Positions 18,348 through 31,980 of a stretch of 32,000 nucleotides of DNA are shown in pieces. Within the stretch, counting starts at the first letter, position 1. Every line of letters begins with the position of its first letter. A model generated the notes under the pieces. That model was not told where the DNA came from. It made no database searches and saw nothing but the letters and a program-made list of their open reading frames with translations. Source of the stretch: Mucisphaera calidilacus (GTDB lineage Bacteria; Planctomycetota; Phycisphaerae; Phycisphaerales; Phycisphaeraceae); NCBI RefSeq assembly GCF_007748075.1, contig NZ_CP036280.1, positions 3,300,001 through 3,332,000 on the forward strand. Direction: 5' to 3'. A program made the translations under genes and the position numbers.

Positions 18348-19217
18348 ATGCCCTCCGAGACCCCATCACTGGACCGAGCTCACAGCAGCCACCCCCGGCA
18401 CTGGCGGCAGTTCCGCGTCGTCTATCCCGTCATGAGCCGCCGCTCGGGCGGGCTGTCGGTCGGCATCAACCTCAGCCCCGACGGCCTGTGCAACTTCGAC
18501 TGCACCTACTGCCAGGTCGATCGCTCGAAGCTCGCCGAGAACGCCCCGGTTGACCTTGACGAACTGCACGGCGAGCTGTCGGTGATGCTCGGCCTGATCC
18601 GCTCGGGCGATTTCTGGACCGACCCTGACTTCGAGGGACTGCCCGAGGACCGGCGGGTGCTCCGCGACCTCTCGTTCTCAGGCAACGGCGAGCCGACCGC
18701 TTCGCCGCTCTTCCCCGCCGCCGTCGATATGGTCCTCGGCCTGCGCGACGCGTCGGGCCTGGACGGCGTGAAAGTCGTCGTGATCACCAACGGGACGCTG
18801 CTGCACCGCGAGCCGGTGAAGAAGGCGATCGGTCGGCTGGGCGACCGCGGCGAGGTATGGGCCAAACTCGACGCGGGGACACAGGCTTACTACGAGAAGA
18901 TTGATCGCTCGGCGGTGCCGCTGGAGCGTTCGGTCGGCAACATGGTGCAGGCGTCGCAGGTCCATCCCCTGACGATCCAGACGATGCTGCTGCGGGACTC
19001 GAGCGGGCCGATGCCCGACACGGAGTTCATGGCCTACATCGCGCGGCTGCGGACGATACTGGACCGGGGCGGCGTGATCACGGGCGTGCAGCTCTACACG
19101 GTCGCGCGTGAGCCCCAGGAATCGGATGTTGAGCCGTTGACGGAGGAAGAGCTGGAGCAGCGTGCGGCCCAGTTGCGCGACGCATTGCCCGAGCTGGATG
19201 TTCGGATTTACCCGTGA
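18348..19217 (+). CDS. Radical SAM domain protein (subfamily not assignable by eye)
   Basis: GINLSPDGLCNFDCTYCQV contains the CX3CX2C cluster motif. LSFSGNGEPT is the GGE-like SAM-binding motif, followed by VVVITNGTLL and VWAKLDAG strands typical of the partial TIM barrel. Confidence 0.8.
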   Translation: MPSETPSLDRAHSSHPRHWRQFRVVYPVMSRRSGGLSVGINLSPDGLCNFDCTYCQVDRSKLAENAPVDLDELHGELSVMLGLIRSGDFWTDPDFEGLPEDRRVLRDLSFSGNGEPTASPLFPAAVDMVLGLRDASGLDGVKVVVITNGTLLHREPVKKAIGRLGDRGEVWAKLDAGTQAYYEKIDRSAVPLERSVGNMVQASQVHPLTIQTMLLRDSSGPMPDTEFMAYIARLRTILDRGGVITGVQLYTVAREPQESDVEPLTEEELEQRAAQLRDALPELDVRIYP

Positions 19218-19478
19218 CGGGGGTGGCGATGTCGCGCACAACGTGACAACTTTACAGATTTTTGCGCTTTTTCGGGTTCAGTAAACACTGCTAACCGGCT
19301 GTTAAACGCTGTTAACGGTCGGGAATGGGTCGGTTTTGGCCGAAAACGGGCTGTTTTCGCGCACAATCTGACACGCGCGACCCCTTGAAAGGTCGCCTTT
19401 GTGCGCGCCGGCCCTTCAGGCGGGATTGGGGGTGCAATCGCGTACTGCTTTGTGGTTTTTGTCTGTCGGGTGTAAGGG
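19218..19478. other. AT-richer intergenic spacer with repeated motifs; candidate oriC-associated or regulatory region
   Basis: A 17-mer TCGCGCACAA-NN-TGACA occurs twice (19232-19248, 19357-19373). Its 9-mer core CGCGCACAA occurs a third time inverted (19399-19407). There is a tandem GCTGTTAA(A)CG (19298-19317) plus GCTGTTTTCG (19350-19359), and a hairpin GCGACC-N8-GGTCGC (19377-19396). The spacer lies next to the + strand GC-skew sign change. Confidence 0.35.
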
Positions 19479-21165: not shown

Positions 21166-22233
21166 TCAGCCGAGTTGTTTGAAGCCTTGTTCGAGCATCT
21201 CGGCGGTCATGTCCCAGCCGATGCACTCGTCGGTGACGGAGACGCCTCGTTTGAGCTGGGTGAGGTCGCCGGGGATGTCCTGCCGGCCGGGTTCGAGGTT
21301 GGACTCGATCATGACGCCTGTGATGGGGCAGTCGTTCTGCCGGCGTTGCTGGAGGATGGAGTTCCAGACGACCTGCTGCTGCTCGTGCTTCTTGCCTGAG
21401 TTGGCGTGTGAGCAGTCGACCATGATGCCGGCGGGGAGGCCAGCGGCTTTGAGTTTCTGGGAGGCTTCGGCGACGTTCTCGGGGTCGTAGTTAGTTTTGC
21501 CGGAGCCGCCTCGGAGGATGACGTGGCCCCAGCGGTTGCCGGTGGTGGCGACGACGCAGCAGCGTCCGTCCTCGTCGACGCCTAGGAAGTGGTGGGGTGC
21601 CTTGGCGGACTTCATGGCGTCGATGGCGACCTGGAGGTTGCCGTCGGTGGCGTTTTTGTAGCCGACGGGCATGGAGAGGCCGGAGGCCATCTGCCGGTGT
21701 GTCTGCGACTCGGTGGTGCGTGCGCCGATGGCGGCCCAGGAGACCATGTCGTCGAGGTACTGGGGTGTGAAGGGGTCTAGGAACTCGGTGGCGGTGGGGA
21801 GTCCCATGGCGGTGATGTCGAGGAGGAGTTTGCGTGCGATGCGCAGGCCCTCGGACATCTGGAAGCTGCCGTCGAGGAGGGGGTCGTTGATGAGCCCTTT
21901 CCAGCCGACGGTGGTTCGCGGTTTTTCGAAGTAGGTCCGCATGACGATGACCATGCGGTCGGTGTAGGCGGCTCGGCAGGCGAGGAGTCGTTCGGCGTAT
22001 TCGAGGGCGGCGTCGGGGTCGTGGATGGAGCAGGGCCCGATGACGACGAGGAGCCTGGGGTCTTCGCCTGAGAGGATGGCCTTGATGGTGTTGCGTGACT
22101 GGATGACGGTTCGTCGGCTGGCGTCGGAGAGGGGGAGTGCCTGCTCGAGGTCGCGTGGCGCGGTGAGGGGCGTGATGGACTGGACGTGGACGTTCTGGGT
22201 GGGCGTCAGGTCGACGTTCTGGGGGGTGGTCAC
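21166..22233 (-). CDS. aroG: 3-deoxy-7-phosphoheptulonate (DAHP) synthase, class I
   Basis: [51 protein letters not shown] and DCSHANS are class I-alpha DAHP synthase motifs. GTG start at 22233 with GGAG 7 nt upstream. The isozyme type (F/G/H) cannot be determined. Confidence 0.9.
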
Positions 22234-26008: not shown

Positions 26009-26950
26009 TCAGTCGGCGGTCATGACGCGCAGGGTTTGAGCTTCGACGGTTTCGTCGCGGTCGACGTTGAGGACGGCGCCGTTGGGTGCCTTGATGCTGA
26101 GGCTGTAGGCCTGCTGCTGGGCGGTGTGTCGTGCCGTGACCTCGTTGCGGTCGAGGTCGATGAAGATCTCGGAGTTGTAGCTGGTCTTGCCGGGTTTGAA
26201 GGTGGGTTTGGGGGCGTTGGGCGGGATGTTGCCGTAGTCGGGTGGCAGGAGGACGGGACTGGCTTCGGCGGAGATGACGGCGACGGGAACGTCCTCGATG
26301 GTGGTGACGTCGCTGAGCGTGTAGGTGACGGGGATCTCGATCTGGTTGTCTTCGAAGGCGTAGCCGAGGAGATCCTGTTTCCAGGTGCTGTTGATCTTGA
26401 GGGATTCTGGGAGCTCGCCGGGCTGGGTCATGCCGGCGATGTTGTAGAGGGCTTCTTTTTCGGCGCGTTCGGCCCCGACCATATCGACGCGGAGTTTGAG
26501 CTTGTCGGTGCCGGCGACCTTGGCGATGGTGCCGTCGGGCTTGATGGTGTAGACGAGGGGGTTGTCGACGACTTCCTTGAGGAGTTTGTGGAACTCGGCG
26601 TGTTCGCCGGGGCCTTTGCGTGTGTCGACCTTGAGGGTCTGGCTCTGTCCGTTGGCGCTGTTGGTGAGGCTGACCTCGAGCCACTTGACGGCAATCTCGC
26701 AGGTCGCTTCGCCTGAGGGCTTGACCTTGTCGACGGTCCAGGCGATCTCGGCGTTGAGTTCGGCGGTTTCGGACTGTTTGGACTCGCGGCCGTTGGGGAA
26801 CCTGACGTGGGTGTTGGTGGTGTAGCGGGTCCACTCTTCGTAGAGGCGTGTCTGTCCCTCGGCGAACTTGGGTCGCAGGTCGACGGCGTCCTGCGCGGCG
26901 GCGGGGGCGATGGCGAGGAGGCAGAGGATTGTGGCGAGGAGGTATTTCAT
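26009..26950 (-). CDS. Secreted protein, unknown function
   Basis: MKYLLATILCLLAIAPAAAQDA is a cleavable signal peptide. The 313-aa product has balanced, beta-rich composition and I recognise no motif. It lies 27 nt downstream of the 26978..27562 gene on the same strand. Confidence 0.55.
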   Translation of the reverse strand: MKYLLATILCLLAIAPAAAQDAVDLRPKFAEGQTRLYEEWTRYTTNTHVRFPNGRESKQSETAELNAEIAWTVDKVKPSGEATCEIAVKWLEVSLTNSANGQSQTLKVDTRKGPGEHAEFHKLLKEVVDNPLVYTIKPDGTIAKVAGTDKLKLRVDMVGAERAEKEALYNIAGMTQPGELPESLKINSTWKQDLLGYAFEDNQIEIPVTYTLSDVTTIEDVPVAVISAEASPVLLPPDYGNIPPNAPKPTFKPGKTSYNSEIFIDLDRNEVTARHTAQQQAYSLSIKAPNGAVLNVDRDETVEAQTLRVMTAD

Positions 26951-26977: not shown

Positions 26978-27562
26978 TCAGATGGAGCCGGGGCCGGGCG
27001 TGCCGTCGGCGGAGCCGGTCCAGTGCATCTCGATGGCTTTCCAGCCGTCGGGTGTTCTGTGCCAGTGGATGTCCCAGTAGGTTCGTGCGGGTGTCGGCAT
27101 GGTTTCGACGTAGGTGCGGATTTCGGCCTGGGTGGTGGCGGTGTCGGGTGAGGGGAAGGTGGTGGTCTGGGACCAGACGCGGTGGCGGCGGATGCCATAC
27201 TTGTCGGTGATGGACTGCGCCCAGTCGTCGAGTTCGGGTCGCTGGTAGATCACAGTCGGGCCCGGGGCGAGGATCGTGAGGTTGTCGTCGGCGGCGTGGT
27301 TGAATTCGGGGTTGTCGGTATCGGTGGCGAGTTGGAGGAGTTGGTCGAGTCGTGCGTTGACGTGTTCGTGGTCGGTGGTGATGGCGAAGGAGAGGATGAG
27401 CGCGATGAAGGCGATGTCGAGGCAGCCCATGGCGAGGATGATGCCGGCGCGGGTCCGCTGGAGGGCGCGTGCGATCAGGAAGGCGATGGCGGCGAGGGCG
27501 ACGGAGGCGACGACGACCGGCCAGGGTTCTTCGAGGAAGAGGACGCGTAGGGTGTCGATCAT
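26978..27562 (-). CDS. Membrane-anchored protein with NTF2/SnoaL-like C-terminal domain (tentative)
   Basis: Two N-terminal hydrophobic helices (WPVVVASVALAAIAFLIA, GIILAMGCLDIAFIALILSFAI). The C-terminal TYWDIHWHRTPDGWKAIEMHW resembles the terminal strands of NTF2-like folds. GAGAGGAA lies upstream of ATG 27562. Confidence 0.5.
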   Translation of the reverse strand: MIDTLRVLFLEEPWPVVVASVALAAIAFLIARALQRTRAGIILAMGCLDIAFIALILSFAITTDHEHVNARLDQLLQLATDTDNPEFNHAADDNLTILAPGPTVIYQRPELDDWAQSITDKYGIRRHRVWSQTTTFPSPDTATTQAEIRTYVETMPTPARTYWDIHWHRTPDGWKAIEMHWTGSADGTPGPGSI

Positions 27563-27663: not shown

Positions 27664-29577
27664 ATGGCTGAATCGGACACGATCTTCAAGCGGAATCTGT
27701 CTGCGCTGAGACTGCGCAACAGCACCTTTGCGGACCGCCTTGAGACTACAGAACCCGTTGAATTGAATTGGGTTACGTCGAAGAAGGGCCCGTTGTCGGC
27801 ACAGCTGGGGGATGGGTCGGGATCGGCGAGTTGGCTGGCGAGTCGATTCGATCCCGGAGCCGAAGCGAAGCGGCTGGTGGAGAAGGTGGATCGGGACAAG
27901 GCGGGGTGTGTGGTGGTGATGGGTTTCGGTCTGGGGCATCACGTCTCGTCGCTGGTTGAGCAGCTGGGTCCGCGGACGGTGCTGGTGGTTTTCGAGCCGG
28001 ACGTGGGGTTGCTGCGTGCGGTGTTTGAGCGTGTGGATCACTCGGCGACGCTGGCGAACGGGATGGTCTTCATCTTTGACCGTGAGGATGACCGGGCGGG
28101 GCTGACGAGTCGTCTGGAGCGGTTGGGGGGCGTGATGACGCAGGGGACGCAGATCGTGGTGCACCCGGCGTCGCGGTCGCGTCACAAGGACGCGTTCGGG
28201 GCGTTCTCGAAGACGTTTGCGGAGGCGTTGGCCTATTTCCGAACGACGGTGGCGACGGCGCTGGTGAACTCGGCGCGGACGTGCCGGAACCTGGTGAACA
28301 ATCTGGGGCACTACGTGGCGGGTGCGACGGTGGCGGAGTTGCAGGGTGTGGCGAAGGGCTATGCGGCGGTGTGTGTGGCGGCGGGGCCGAGCCTGGTTCG
28401 GAACGTGGACCTGCTGCGTGACCCGGCGGTGCGTTCGAAGCTGGTGATCGTGACGGCTCAGACGGCGTTGCGGCCGTTGCTGGACCGGGGGATCCGTCCT
28501 GACTTCGTGACGGCGTTGGACTATTCGCCGATCTGCACGCGTTTTTATGAGGATCTGCCGGATCTGCCGGACGTGACACTGGTGGTTGAGCCGAAGGCGC
28601 ACCCGCGGATTCTTGAGGTCTATCCGGGTCCGGTGCGTGTGCTCAGCTCGGACTTCAACGACGTGCTCATTGGTGATCTGAAGCGTGAGATCCCGCCGAT
28701 CCGTTCGGGGACGACGGTGGCGCACCTGTCGTTCTACCTGGCGCAGTACCTGGGGTGTGACCCGATTCTGCTGCTGGGGCAGGACCTCGGTTTTTCGGAC
28801 GGCCTGTACTACGCGCCGGGCACGGCGGTGCACAAGGTGTGGTCGTCGGAGCTGTCGCAGTTCAATTCGGTTGAGATGATGGAGTGGCAGCGGATTGTTC
28901 GGATGCGTGGGCATCTCACGCGGACCGAGGACATCCACGGCCGTCCGATGTTCACGGACGAGCAGATGGTGACGTACCTGCGTCAGTTCGAGCGTGATTT
29001 CGCGGATGCCGAGCAGCGTGTGATCGACACGACGGAGGGCGGCCAGGCCAAGGCGAACACGGAGCGGATGGCGCTCGCGGAGGCGGTGGGTCAGATCGAG
29101 ACGGGTGCGGTGCCGGAGCTGCCCCGGGCGTCGCGTGAGCTGGACCCGGAGCGGTTGTCGAAGGTTCGGGGGTTGTTGGAGCAGCGGCTCCGCGACCTGA
29201 CCGAGTTGCGGAAGGTGTCGCACAACACGATCGCGTTGCTGGAGCAGATGCAGGGCTGTCTGGACAATCAGCCGAGGCTGCTGAAGATTTTCGAGAAGCT
29301 TCAGAAGAACGACCGGCGGGTGCACGGCCCGCTTTACGAGACTTTCAGCGCGGTGAACGCGATGAACACGATCGGCGTGTTTCATCGCCAGGCTGCGGAC
29401 CGGCGGATCAGCCAGATCACGGATGATCGTCAGGCGCGGCAGGCGGGTCAGCTCAAGCGTGACGTTGAGAACATCGAGTGGATGCTGCAGGCGTGCGACG
29501 AGGCGGAGTCGATTTTTTCCGAAGCGTTGGAGCGCGTGACGTGTCTGCGTCCGGCGTTGCCGGCGGCAGCGGCGTAG
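27664..29577 (+). CDS. Motility-associated-factor (Maf) family glycosyltransferase, DUF115 / MptE-like domain
   Basis: Preferred ATG is 27664 (MAESDTIFKRNLSALRLRNSTFADRLE, the typical Maf N-terminus). Also GFGLGHHV, LVVFEPD, and the DUF115 core VCVAAGPSL...VIVTAQTALRPLLDRGIRPDFVTALDYSP...GTTVAHLSFYLAQYLGCDPILLLGQDLGF. The upstream 65 codons of the track ORF are Arg-rich junk that overlaps the divergent gene. Confidence 0.8.
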   Translation: MAESDTIFKRNLSALRLRNSTFADRLETTEPVELNWVTSKKGPLSAQLGDGSGSASWLASRFDPGAEAKRLVEKVDRDKAGCVVVMGFGLGHHVSSLVEQLGPRTVLVVFEPDVGLLRAVFERVDHSATLANGMVFIFDREDDRAGLTSRLERLGGVMTQGTQIVVHPASRSRHKDAFGAFSKTFAEALAYFRTTVATALVNSARTCRNLVNNLGHYVAGATVAELQGVAKGYAAVCVAAGPSLVRNVDLLRDPAVRSKLVIVTAQTALRPLLDRGIRPDFVTALDYSPICTRFYEDLPDLPDVTLVVEPKAHPRILEVYPGPVRVLSSDFNDVLIGDLKREIPPIRSGTTVAHLSFYLAQYLGCDPILLLGQDLGFSDGLYYAPGTAVHKVWSSELSQFNSVEMMEWQRIVRMRGHLTRTEDIHGRPMFTDEQMVTYLRQFERDFADAEQRVIDTTEGGQAKANTERMALAEAVGQIETGAVPELPRASRELDPERLSKVRGLLEQRLRDLTELRKVSHNTIALLEQMQGCLDNQPRLLKIFEKLQKNDRRVHGPLYETFSAVNAMNTIGVFHRQAADRRISQITDDRQARQAGQLKRDVENIEWMLQACDEAESIFSEALERVTCLRPALPAAAA

Positions 29578-29587
29578 GAGCGGGCTG

Positions 29588-31258
29588 GTGACACGAGTGT
29601 TCGCTTTGATCCCGACGGATCTGGAGGAGGGGCGGCTGGGTCATGGTCGGTCGCTCGGGGATGACCTTGGCGGGGTATCGGTGCTGGAGCAGACGGTGCG
29701 TCGCGCGCTGCGGACCGAGGGTGTTGAGGGCGTGGTGCTGGTTCATCCCGAGGGTCAGGAGCCGTTGGGGGTGTTGTCGGGCGAGGCGGCGGGGCGTGTG
29801 ACGACGTTTGCAGACGCGGACGGGCTGCGTGACGATCAGACGGCGCGGCTGGTTTCGGCGCGGAAGTGGGCGTTGGGTGCGTGGCGGGGAGGTTTGGGTT
29901 TTGCGACGGCGTTCGACGAGTTGCTGCCACCCGGGGCGTTGCTGCGTGCGGCGGAGTCGGTGGGTGCCGACTCGGCGTTGCTGGTGCGTGGCGACTGGCC
30001 GTTGTTTGATGTGGGTTATGCCGAGGCGTTGATCCGGTCGCACGTGGCGAGCCCGGAGCACCTGAAGGTGACGCTGACGCAGGCGCCACCCGGTCTGGGG
30101 CCGCTGGTGCTGTCGCGTCGCGTGCTGGGTGACATGGCGGAGCACGCGGGCTGGTTCGGCAAGATCCTGGGTTACAACACGTTTGCGCCGTCGATCGACC
30201 CGATCGGTCGCGAGGTGACACACCCGATCGCGTCGTCGGTTCGCGACTGTGCGCGGCGGTTTGTTTATGACACGCCCGAGTCGATCGGGCGTCTTCGTGG
30301 CGTGGCGGAGCGACTGGGAGGCGGCCTGGCGACGGCCGATGCACAGGCGGTGACGGACGCCTGCCGAGCGCTTGAGTCGGGTGACGGCGGTTTCTGGTTC
30401 TCGCGTTTGCCGCAGCAGGTGACGGTTGAGTTGACGCCTCGGCGTCCGGTGTCGGGCCCGATCACGCCTCAGGCGTATGTGGATTTTGATCGTCCGGACA
30501 TGGACGTTGATCTGGCCGAGCGTGTGGTGGGCGAATTGGGTGCGGCGGAACGCGGTGACGTGGCGTTGATGCTGGGGGGTCTGGGTGATGCGCTGCTTCA
30601 TCCGGAATGGGAGCGTGTGGTGCGTGCGGCGGACGAGGCGGGTGTGTTCGGGATCGGCGTGGAGACGGATCTGGCGGGTTCGTGGGAGGAGGTCGCGCCG
30701 CTGCTGGATCTGCCGATTGACCTGGTGGTGGTGCGTTTCAACGCGGATTGTTCGGAGACGTACGAGAGGGTGATGGGTGGTGATTTCACGCGGGTGGCGA
30801 CGAATCTCAAGCGGCTGTTCGAGGAGCGTGGGGCGCGTCGTGCGGCGGACGGTCGGGGGTCGCAGGTGCCGTGGATCGTGCCGCGTCTGGTGAAGACGGC
30901 GGAGACGCTCCGCGACATGGAGAGTTTCTTCGAGCGCTGGTTGCGTGCGTCGGGTTACGCGATTCTGTCGCCTTCGTGTTCGGGTTGCGGCCTGATGCCC
31001 GAGTTGTCGCCCGTGCCGATGGAGCCGCCACGGCGTGTGGCCTGTCAGCAGCTGGGTCGTCGGATGTCGGTGTTGTCGGACGGGCGTGTGGCGTTGTGTG
31101 ATCAGGACTGGCTGGGGCGGGCTTCGCTGGGCGATGCTCGTGCGGATTCGCTGGCGTCGATCTGGGCGCGATGCGCGGAGCCTTTTGCGGCGCACGCGTC
31201 GGGTCGTTACCAGGAGCTGACGATCTGCGGTTCGTGTCGGGAGTGGCACCGGCCATGA
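29588..31258 (+). CDS. Fusion protein: degenerate cytidylyltransferase-like N-domain plus radical-SAM-like barrel lacking the CX3CX2C triad plus SPASM/twitch-like Cys-rich C-terminus
   Basis: GTG start 11 nt after the maf stop. The N-terminus VFALIPTDLEEGRLGHGRSLGDDLGGVSVLEQTV...VEGVVLV parallels the neighbouring CMP-sugar synthetase (VLALILARAGSKGLPGKNELDVAGRPMLAWTV...VERVVLT), but the RxGSKGxxxKN motif is replaced. Residues 277-340 (QVTVELTPRRPVSGPITPQ...LMLGGLGDALLHPEW) look like a radical SAM beta1/GGE region without cysteines. C486-x12-G-x4-C504 matches the first SPASM element, and there are also CSGC (464-467) and CGSC (547-550). Confidence 0.65.
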   Translation: MTRVFALIPTDLEEGRLGHGRSLGDDLGGVSVLEQTVRRALRTEGVEGVVLVHPEGQEPLGVLSGEAAGRVTTFADADGLRDDQTARLVSARKWALGAWRGGLGFATAFDELLPPGALLRAAESVGADSALLVRGDWPLFDVGYAEALIRSHVASPEHLKVTLTQAPPGLGPLVLSRRVLGDMAEHAGWFGKILGYNTFAPSIDPIGREVTHPIASSVRDCARRFVYDTPESIGRLRGVAERLGGGLATADAQAVTDACRALESGDGGFWFSRLPQQVTVELTPRRPVSGPITPQAYVDFDRPDMDVDLAERVVGELGAAERGDVALMLGGLGDALLHPEWERVVRAADEAGVFGIGVETDLAGSWEEVAPLLDLPIDLVVVRFNADCSETYERVMGGDFTRVATNLKRLFEERGARRAADGRGSQVPWIVPRLVKTAETLRDMESFFERWLRASGYAILSPSCSGCGLMPELSPVPMEPPRRVACQQLGRRMSVLSDGRVALCDQDWLGRASLGDARADSLASIWARCAEPFAAHASGRYQELTICGSCREWHRP

Positions 31259-31980
31259 GCGTGAAGGGTGATACGAGCGGCGGTGTGCTGGCGTTGATCC
31301 TGGCGCGTGCGGGGAGCAAGGGTCTGCCGGGCAAGAACGAGCTGGATGTCGCGGGTCGGCCGATGCTGGCGTGGACGGTGGACTGTGCGCGCGAGGCGGC
31401 CTGTGTGGAGCGCGTGGTGTTGACGACGGATGGCGAGCGGCTGGCCGAGATGGGTCGTTCGCTGGGCGTGGAGGTGGTGGAGCGGCCCGGGGCTCTGGCG
31501 GATGACACGGCGACCGTGGACGCGGCGGCGCGGCACGCGGTGACGGTGTTGGAGGCGGGCGGGGCGTCTTATTCGGAGGTGGTGTTGTTGTACGGCAACG
31601 TGCCGGTCCGGCCGAGCGGTCTGGTGGATCGTGCGGTGTCGATGCTGCGCGAGACGGGCTGCGATTCGGTGCAGTCGGTGTGCGGCGTGGGCAAGGCACA
31701 CCCGTACTGGATGAAGACCCTGGATGAGACGGGGCGTATGTCGGCGTACGAGGCGAATCAGGTCTACCGGCGTCAGGACCTGCCTCCGGTTTACCTGCTG
31801 GATGGTGGGTTGATCGCGGTGCGTCGTGCTTCGCTGTTTGTGGAGTGTGCGGGTGAGCCGCACGCGTTTCTCGGCGAGGATCGTCGTGCGGTGGTGACGG
31901 AGCCGGGTGAGGTGATTGATATTGATACCGCGGCGGATCTTGCGGTTGCGGAGGCGGTGTTGCTTTCAAGGGGCGACTGA
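31255..31980 (+). CDS. CMP-nonulosonic acid synthetase (N-acylneuraminate cytidylyltransferase family; NeuA/LegF/PseF-like)
   Basis: LALILARAGSKGLPGKNELDVAGRPMLAWTV contains the RxGSKGxPxKN motif of the CTP_transf_3 family, and later RRQDLPPVYLLDGGLIAVR. The ATG at 31255 overlaps the upstream stop (ATGA). The track start at 31171 is less likely. The sugar specificity cannot be determined. Confidence 0.85.
   Translation: MSVKGDTSGGVLALILARAGSKGLPGKNELDVAGRPMLAWTVDCAREAACVERVVLTTDGERLAEMGRSLGVEVVERPGALADDTATVDAAARHAVTVLEAGGASYSEVVLLYGNVPVRPSGLVDRAVSMLRETGCDSVQSVCGVGKAHPYWMKTLDETGRMSAYEANQVYRRQDLPPVYLLDGGLIAVRRASLFVECAGEPHAFLGEDRRAVVTEPGEVIDIDTAADLAVAEAVLLSRGD

Follow-up and report, generated by a model that had tools for sequence, protein, structure and literature searches.

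A radical SAM-like protein without its cluster triad, encoded beside maf in Mucisphaera calidilacus, as a candidate partner of the Maf glycosyltransferase

The 32,000-nucleotide stretch of Mucisphaera calidilacus analyzed here (contig NZ_CP036280.1, positions 3,300,001 to 3,332,000; hereafter the window) raises the question of what a protein built like a radical S-adenosylmethionine (SAM) enzyme does once the cysteines of its SAM-cleaving cluster are gone. The gene concerned (29588..31258, +) stands directly 3' of maf and encodes a 556-residue product that we call X for short, a radical-SAM/twitch protein with a cytidylyltransferase-like N-terminal domain and without the CX3CX2C triad. A preliminary description of the locus had proposed a repurposed enzyme or pseudoenzyme, for example a partner of Maf, and this proposal is backed here by predicted folds, conservation, synteny, and natural gene fusions. 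Judging from sequence and genomic context, X is probably a pseudo-radical-SAM protein that serves the Maf glycosyltransferase as a non-radical accessory subunit.

Three modules and a lost cluster site

The product consists of a cytidylyltransferase-like domain, a radical-SAM-type barrel, and a C-terminal Fe-S-type domain, in agreement with the preliminary description. The AlphaFold2 model, built on an 88-sequence alignment (A1), reaches a mean predicted local distance difference test score (pLDDT) of 92.7 and a predicted template modeling score (pTM) of 0.92. Foldseek comparison with the PDB divides the model into an N-terminal part of about 250 residues and a C-terminal part of about 290 residues with distinct matches, recovering both the cytidylyltransferase-like fold and the radical SAM-like barrel. 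In profile hidden Markov model searches, SPASM is the sole Pfam match above cutoff. The best NCBIfam match is TIGR04321, spiro-SPASM (E=5.7e-31, residues 124 to 554 on model positions 86 to 506 of 510), to which X is homologous at a score (107.7 bits) below the cutoff of 250.

The central module (residues 275 to 462; 30410..30973, +) is modeled as alternating strands and helices forming a partial (beta/alpha)6 barrel, with Foldseek probability 1.00 to DesII, SuiB, BtrN, SkfB, EpeE, MoaA, and anSME. DesII is the top match, BtrN (4m7t) is matched with a template modeling (TM) score of 0.74 and a root mean square deviation of 3.9 Å, and further matches include BlsE, AbmM, and viperin-like enzymes. 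TIGR04317 matches residues 276 to 418 (E=1e-6), and PF04055 gives no match in X even at E<=1. The cysteines of X occupy positions 221, 259, 388, 464, 467, 486, 504, 529, 547, and 550, which bears out the Cys-free stretch from 260 to 387 and the missing CX3CX2C that had been noticed earlier. The loop that formerly held the triad (residues 281 to 295, ELTPRRPVSGPITPQ; 30428..30472, +) was located by hmmalign and by BLASTP to P0199, a metagenomic relative with CKMQCSFC at this place; both put R286, G290, and T293 at the three triad positions. E281 and R286 are invariant in the 88-sequence alignment, and G290 and P294 are conserved in more than 90% of it.

The GGE motif, which contacts the SAM amino group, is degenerate as well, reading GGLGD with Asp334 for Glu (30575..30589, +). 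Position 334 is Glu in 100% of the triad-retaining relatives, Asp in 84% of the unfused triad-less ones, and Asp in 100% of the members fused to Maf, and the loss of the triad is accompanied by a Glu-to-Asp change in the SAM-binding motif. Taken at face value, these substitutions suggest that X no longer performs radical chemistry or reductive SAM cleavage.

A word-indexed search with X yields 277 homologues, of which the best 120 are all full length, 44 to 70% identical, and from Phycisphaerae/Planctomycetota. None of these 120 contains CX3CX2C. Relatives of X occur in 299 genomes of a GTDB species-genome scan, and an exhaustive profile search of 1.84 billion cluster representatives recovers 633 at E<=1e-30, each standing for a cluster at 50% identity. 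Across 88 sequences at 45 to 70% identity there are 30 invariant columns, a degree of constraint that speaks for strong purifying selection and against decay.

The canonical CX3CX2C is present in the same loop of P0199 (EIEVTNRCKMQCSFCPR) and P0235 (EIEITTQCPLHCVWCPR), and is also kept in P0283-285, P0296, and P0297. P0199 is collinear with X (32% identity, E=2e-75), with C278, C282, and C285 aligned on R286, G290, and T293. P0298 is 56% identical to the triad-positive P0235 and P0296 and still has GGFGEP, but its loop reads TTRSRLQAAWSPGR against their TTQCPLHCVWCPRN. Since P0298 is nested among triad-positive sequences, the triad was lost independently at least twice. We also built a neighbor-joining tree with parsimony counts of the losses, and these counts were not used, as distances were saturated and the outgroup was non-monophyletic.

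A kinship with the spiro-SPASM proteins had been suggested earlier as a point to test, and this lead holds as homology and fails as membership. All 88 clade members match TIGR04321 (best E=1.2e-42), but X and 25 other relatives, scored singly, stay at or below 209 bits. Bona fide members (P0303-P0308) score 555 to 567 bits, match PF04055, carry CX3CX2C as CPHACSYC or CPQNCSYC, and have the same four C-terminal cysteines (C-x17-C-x40-C-x2-C in P0304). Because the true members possess the triad, we rejected spiro-SPASM proteins as models of a cluster-less protein. X is a triad-less offshoot of the superfamily that contains the spiro-SPASM proteins, themselves ordinary radical SAM/twitch proteins.

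The N-terminal module (residues 1 to 250; 29588..30337, +) has a cytidylyltransferase-like fold without the Arg/Lys signature loop. Foldseek matches it to the Leptospira cytidylyltransferase 6oew (TM score 0.76 to 0.78), and also to KdsB (1h6j) and IspD; NTP_transf_3 (PF12804) is matched below threshold (E=0.017, 15.7 bits, cutoff 27), and X gives no Pfam match to PF02348. A GDxPLxD-like motif is kept at G135-D141. Invariant residues are R92, W99-R100-G101-G102, D110-E111, Q165, G169, Y196, D204, R219, R224, and D228, and E111, D141, R224, and D228 are conserved across all lineages. The module had been described as paralleling the adjacent synthetase strand for strand. The fold and the register hold, with hhalign placing ALIPTDLEEGRLG opposite ALILARAGSKGLPGKN as before, but BLASTP between the two is not significant (E=2.2) and hhalign itself is weak (E=0.0023, probability 12.6%), and the likeness is at the level of the fold only. 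In the hhalign register, TDLEEGRLG of X stands opposite the catalytic loop ARAGSKGLPGKN, with D11 and L17 at the key Arg/Lys positions. The nucleotidyltransferase loop is indeed absent from X, as had been noted, but its loss did not accompany that of the triad. Since the triad-retaining relatives do not have it either, its absence is ancestral to the whole family. Of the proposal that the auxiliary-cluster domain is retained while two other sites were lost, the loss of the SAM-cleaving site stands and the parallel loss of the nucleotidyltransferase loop does not.

The C-terminal module (residues 464 to 556; 30977..31255, +) is a twitch-type, that is truncated SPASM, domain, identified by Pfam SPASM (residues 486 to 550, E=1.5e-7, 32 bits against a cutoff of 21.5), a BtrN profile match, and cysteine conservation. 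Its CSGC (464-467), C486-x12-G499-x4-C504, C529, and terminal CGSC (547-550) are all as first described, and the chain indeed ends, 6 residues past C550, before a full CX2CX5CX3C. The seven-Cys SPASM pattern is reduced in X to CX12GX4C and the terminal CX2C. Among 121 sequences of the window clade, C504, C547, and C550 are each conserved in 120, C486 in 114, and C467 in 102, whereas C464 is found in 37 and C529 in no sequence. The four cysteines C486, C504, C547, and C550, which are 94 to 99% conserved in the unfused clade, are the putative [4Fe-4S] ligands. In a twitch domain, a Cys-flanked beta-hairpin and a downstream CX2C supply four ligands to one [4Fe-4S] cluster (PMC9012708). The BtrN twitch is the best PDB profile match of X, although a weak one (E=0.038), with C504, C547, and C550 on BtrN cysteines, and the pattern C486-x17-C504-x42-C547-x2-C550 fits the single BtrN auxiliary cluster. 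The auxiliary-cluster domain foreseen earlier is retained, not as a two-cluster SPASM domain but, as its spacing suggests, as a one-cluster twitch of BtrN type, with the cluster predicted from the ligand pattern.

Coupling to Maf and the function of X

X is tightly joined to its neighbors. An AGGAG ribosome-binding site, read directly in the sequence (29576..29580, +), lies 7 nt 5' of the GTG start of X and overlaps the maf stop codon TAG (29575-29577); X starts 10 nt downstream of that stop codon, and at its 3' end the stop codon and the ATG of the following cytidylyltransferase gene share the sequence ATGA. We called and clustered genes in 80 related Phycisphaerae loci in addition to the window, and observe that the order maf-X-cytidylyltransferase-neuC is conserved. 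In 73 of 76 loci, the gene at position -1 relative to X is Maf/MptE-like; X is followed by a CTP_transf_3 cytidylyltransferase gene at position +1 in 59 loci and by a gene for a NeuC-type hydrolysing UDP-N-acetylglucosamine 2-epimerase at position +2 in 49 (TIGR03568, 286.6 bits against 235.9). A linkage to maf and to nonulosonate genes is thereby borne out. In an independent tblastn search of 81 sequences, 78 gave a match to Maf, 73 to the cytidylyltransferase, 61 to NeuC, and 10 to NeuB.

The pairing of maf and X also extends to four further lineages outside the window clade. In the triad-positive P0199 island, X is embedded in the series flagellin (two genes), FlaG, FliD, FliS, TP0873-like, Maf, X, cytidylyltransferase, NeuB, and NeuC, followed by methyltransferase, acyltransferase, dehydratase, and aminotransferase genes. 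The triad-positive P0296 shows the same maf-X-cytidylyltransferase core adjoining FliD and FliS, and the recently triad-less P0298 stands right after a Maf gene and ahead of a cytidylyltransferase gene. In a third triad-less clade (P0254, P0289), the stop codon of maf overlaps the start codon of X, and no sugar-pathway gene (no cytidylyltransferase) follows.

In approximately one-fifth of the best 150 representatives, the two proteins are one. These proteins of about 1,200 residues, from Phycisphaerales/Planctomycetota, carry an N-terminal MptE-like/Maf domain (E~1e-37) and a C-terminal half corresponding to X. Residues 9 to 678 of P0157 align to the window Maf (42% identity, E=3e-165) and residues 715 to 1224 to X (37% identity, E=2e-95), and P0157 therefore joins the two window genes end to end, in the order that they have in the genome. 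In the cassette [Maf-X]-cytidylyltransferase-NeuB-NeuC, the fusion stands in for the two separate genes. Because NeuB is so seldom encoded nearby, we considered X as its replacement, and rejected this since both the P0199 island and the fusion cassette have NeuB and X side by side. Of 27 representative fusions, 26 have none of the four twitch cysteines and no triad either, while the twitch hairpin (ILSDGSVP...) is kept, which argues that the conserved function of the family needs neither cluster. The fusion P0196 (1,197 aa), folded with 29 sequences, reaches a pLDDT of 88.0 and a pTM of 0.86 with a linker (639-654) of pLDDT <50, and this model suggests a fixed, defined packing of X against Maf.

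We propose that the ancestor of X was a genuine radical SAM/twitch enzyme with a cytidylyltransferase-like binding domain, already working within Maf-dependent nonulosonic-acid flagellin glycosylation. The SAM-cleaving [4Fe-4S] site would have been replaced in the lineage of the Phycisphaerae, its three cysteines giving way to R286, G290, and T293; with the change of the GGE glutamate to Asp, reductive SAM cleavage would no longer be possible. The protein would have been kept by selection for a second, non-radical role as a Maf accessory subunit, and repeated loss of the triad with retention of the protein is what such a role would lead one to expect. X and Maf probably meet at a fixed docking interface, and X may bind or present the cytidine monophosphate (CMP)-sugar donor through the cytidylyltransferase-like domain and the former substrate pocket, or stabilize Maf. 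The four-Cys twitch cluster would most likely be structural, since it is dispensable once X and Maf are covalently joined.

How far do other explanations account for the same locus? That the missing triad is a sequencing error, a frameshift, or the mark of a decaying pseudogene has next to no probability. We found no support for it, the triad-less loop is shared by all 120 homologues, which come from independent assemblies, and the 30 invariant columns, the confident model, and an intact 556-codon frame with GC content at third codon positions of coding type all speak against it. Given that the replacing loop is itself conserved, an artefactual origin is effectively excluded. Nearly as improbable is a radical SAM enzyme with an unconventional cluster site, built for example from C-terminal cysteines or from ligands supplied by Maf. 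The radical SAM fold is whole and confidently predicted, and the additional cysteine C467 is kept in 84% of the clade, yet R, G, and T occupy all triad positions with Arg286 invariant, the GGE glutamate was lost in step with the triad, the C-terminal cysteines align to a fully ligated BtrN auxiliary cluster, and fused relatives have no cysteine at all at the C-terminal ligand sites. This too is effectively excluded. A redox or oxygen sensor, in which the twitch [4Fe-4S] cluster reports redox or iron state and switches Maf, would share the partnership with Maf proposed above and would make use of the BtrN-like cysteines so well conserved in the unfused clade; the BtrN auxiliary cluster, with four Cys ligands, assembles independently of the radical SAM cluster and survives its knockout (PMC9012708). 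We nevertheless hold it improbable. The loss of all four cysteines in 26 of 27 fusions means that sensing is not the core function of the family, which weakens the earlier suggestion of Fe-S sensing; moreover, buried four-Cys clusters of BtrN type typically have a structural role or transfer electrons, and no regulatory domain or partner is evident.

The main rival to an accessory subunit is a protein that is still an enzyme, though not a radical one, carrying out acid-base or metal-dependent chemistry on the nonulosonic acid, its CMP form, or a precursor, and standing beside Maf as a pathway neighbor. Such an enzyme would explain the many invariant charged and polar residues in the barrel and the N-terminal domain of the window clade and the steady adjacency to a CMP-sugar synthetase gene, which includes spirochaete loci without a recognizable Maf, and it would suit nearest structural relatives that include the sugar- and nucleotide-modifying BtrN, DesII, BlsE, AbmM, and viperin-like enzymes. 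On the other hand, few of the barrel invariants of the window clade are common to other triad-less and fused clades (residues shared by all groups are mostly G333, H338, T360, A386, and Y392), one triad-less clade has maf-X without a sugar-pathway gene alongside, the nucleotidyltransferase Arg/Lys loop is missing, and the Maf fusions, which are predicted to pack rigidly, speak for X as a subunit. We consider this rival unlikely, but clearly less so than a sensor.

Several observations weigh against X as an accessory subunit. Flagellin is encoded within 10 kb in none of the 80 Phycisphaerae loci or the window, and the acceptor is assumed; tblastn likewise finds FliD and FliS in 0 of 81 sequences within 10 kb of the cassette. 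The packing of X against Maf is read from the pTM of the fusion model, and the Cys-free fusions could have diverged in function. The conservation of the four twitch cysteines in the unfused clade implies that the cluster matters there. Finally, E281, R286, R302, D334, T360, D361, D378, R383, N385, D387, Y392, K436, and E445 are invariant polar residues of the barrel in the window clade, a pattern that could also reflect a ligand-binding or catalytic pocket still in place.

The accessory-subunit reading can be carried further, to a variant that we rate as doubtful. Maf-dependent flagellin sialylation in Planctomycetota and in the P0199/P0235 lineages might be a multi-subunit reaction in which X is obligatory. 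A triad-positive X would be a radical SAM enzyme not described before that edits the CMP-nonulosonate donor while X itself is docked on Maf. The Phycisphaerae X would repeatedly have become a pseudoenzyme with docking and donor presentation as its only role, and its twitch cluster would let flagellin glycosylation respond to oxygen or iron.

Neighboring genes and other features of the window

The maf gene encodes a Maf/MptE-like flagellin nonulosonic-acid glycosyltransferase (27664..29577, +; PF01973, E=6.7e-34; Maf_flag10_N, E=4.4e-6). Its open reading frame (ORF) opens at GTG 27469, from where it would overlap the divergent gene 26978-27562 by approximately 94 nt. The real start is probably ATG 27664 (MAESD...), since homologues and fusions align from about residue 71 of the ORF (TIFKRN...). 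On the other side of X, the gene 31255..31980 (+) encodes a CMP-nonulosonate synthetase-like cytidylyltransferase (PF02348, E=4.4e-18). It matches PseF (TIGR03584, E=1.1e-29) at 103.6 bits, below the cutoff of 205.7, and KdsB models weakly. Only 20 nt of the window follow its stop codon, and neuC, the usual next gene, lies beyond view. Although neuC and the cytidylyltransferase gene are usually present, just 10 of the 81 sequences have neuB within 10 kb of the cassette; remaining pathway genes and the acceptor must be encoded elsewhere in these genomes.

Two genes run divergently from maf, one for a secreted DUF6263 protein (26009-26950, -) and one for a 194-residue membrane protein without a family (26978-27562, -). 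Of 81 loci, 50 have the former gene near the cassette and 34 the latter, and a 198-residue unannotated gene resembling the latter stands ahead of the Maf-X fusion in L086. In the triad-retaining islands, a 202-residue TP0873_N/DUF8042 protein is encoded between fliS and maf (L081 7340-7948, L084 3751-4359), a slot where a Maf adaptor like GlfM might be expected; neither the window nor the Phycisphaerae cassettes encode this protein. Genes of the 3-deoxy-D-arabino-heptulosonate 7-phosphate synthase I family are seen approximately 5 kb upstream of maf in the window (21166-22233, -) and approximately 0.7 kb downstream of X in L090 (6060-7133, -). They probably belong to aromatic amino-acid metabolism, with their position being a coincidence, as 5-enolpyruvylshikimate-3-phosphate (EPSP) synthase is also encoded in the window; a sugar-acid aldolase role is the alternative that we do not favor.

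In the two spiro-SPASM loci examined, the homologue of X is followed by a gene for about 320 residues, a cytidylyltransferase, a methyltransferase (600 aa), an ATP-grasp protein, and an amidase, with flaA near in L087, which marks that locus as spirochaetal. No recognizable Maf stands next to the homologue in either locus. The gene between the homologue and the cytidylyltransferase (L087 2145-3122, 325 aa, with a 319-residue counterpart in the P0304 locus) has no Pfam match and no cryptic Maf domain. The cluster could be a spirochaete flagellin-glycan tailoring cluster.

Elsewhere in the window, GC skew jumps at 18600-19300 from about -0.1 to between +0.25 and +0.32 and stays high to the window end regardless of gene strand. 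Comparably strong skews of either sign are seen in some related loci, such as L001, L033 (Poriferisphaera), and L081, and not in others. The genes at the switch encode EPSP synthase, a radical-SAM-like ORF, and an extracytoplasmic function (ECF) sigma factor, and no dnaA was seen. A skew that differs in size between the two sides would be unusual for a simple origin or terminus. The radical-SAM-like ORF (18348-19217, +; 289 aa) matches Radical_SAM below threshold (26 bits, cutoff 29.5) and is unrelated to X.

Significance and comparison with known systems

The X family appears to capture a radical SAM enzyme in the course of becoming a pseudoenzyme, with every stage living in the same genomic slot: triad-positive, recently triad-less, triad-less with a degraded GGE motif, and, finally, devoid of all cluster cysteines and fused to the partner. 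This makes it a tractable system for studying the re-use of catalytic scaffolds. With relatives in 299 species genomes and 633 clusters, X is a widespread and unstudied candidate component of Maf-dependent flagellin glycosylation. Reconstitution of Maf has been limited by "missing components," of which GlfM is one, and X is a testable candidate for another. Homologues of X are labeled "SPASM domain-containing" or "radical SAM/SPASM domain-containing" in databases, and the latter name implies a chemistry that X proteins would be unable to perform, which calls for a qualified annotation. The triad-retaining relatives and the true spiro-SPASM proteins are, conversely, candidates for new radical chemistry on nonulosonic acids, for which the unusual flagellin glycan of Treponema denticola offers a possible context. 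In our literature searches we found no paper on spiro-SPASM proteins or linking a radical SAM-like protein to Maf, nothing relevant on SPASM with flagellin glycosylation or on flagellin glycosylation in Phycisphaerae, and for "pseudo-SAM" only unrelated papers.

Among characterized proteins, the CMP-nonulosonate and CMP-3-deoxy-D-manno-octulosonate (CMP-Kdo) synthetases (PF02348; KdsB, NeuA, PseF) have the fold and the GDxPLxD-like motif in common with the N-terminal domain of X. In contrast to them, X stays below Pfam cutoffs and has D11 and L17 at the Arg/Lys positions, and a real enzyme of that family is encoded directly downstream. The twitch radical SAM enzymes BtrN and DesII, which act on sugars and aminocyclitols, resemble X in barrel, twitch fold, and spacing of the auxiliary cysteines, whereas X has no radical SAM cluster, a degenerate GGE motif, and an added N-terminal domain, and at the sequence level its match to BtrN falls short of significance (E=0.038). 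For the proposed role, the precedent is GlfM, an 89-residue four-helix bundle that is encoded in cis with maf-2, as X is with maf, and binds Maf; Maf-2 depends on it both for binding flagellin and for glycosylating it (Unay, Kint & Viollier, bioRxiv 10.1101/2023.12.03.569772). GlfM differs from X in size and fold and shows no homology to it, and the role of X is read here from genes and models.

Closer relatives are found within the superfamily. The spiro-SPASM proteins of TIGR04321 have the same three-module architecture, the same four-Cys C-terminal pattern, and homology over nearly the full length, and X shares with them the combination of a four-Cys C-terminal domain and a cytidylyltransferase-like N-terminal domain in one chain of about 500 to 550 residues. 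Unlike them, X has neither CX3CX2C nor a PF04055 match, and it comes from Phycisphaerae/Planctomycetota; in their loci, the CTP_transf_3 gene lies two genes downstream of the homologue of X, and flaA is near in one. The triad-retaining relatives (P0199, P0283-285, P0235, P0296, and P0297; metagenomic) match X in slot, length, domain order, and RKW..WRGG..DE. They differ in keeping CX3CX2C and GGEP, in passing PF04055, and in being part of bigger islands with flagellin, FliD, FliS, and further sugar-modifying genes.

A last parallel is TIGR04347, listed in NCBIfam as "pseudo-SAM/SPASM protein," which we take to be a curated radical SAM/SPASM-like family without the radical SAM Cys motif. If this description is right, it represents the same kind of evolutionary outcome as X in a different lineage, as X does not match it, triad-positive relatives alone match it weakly, and its listing gives no cytidylyltransferase-like domain or link to Maf. 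Triad-less look-alikes of radical SAM/SPASM proteins thus appear to be a recognized idea already, and the novelty here lies in a large pseudo-radical-SAM branch within the spiro-SPASM superfamily that is coupled to Maf and for which living intermediates as well as natural fusions exist.

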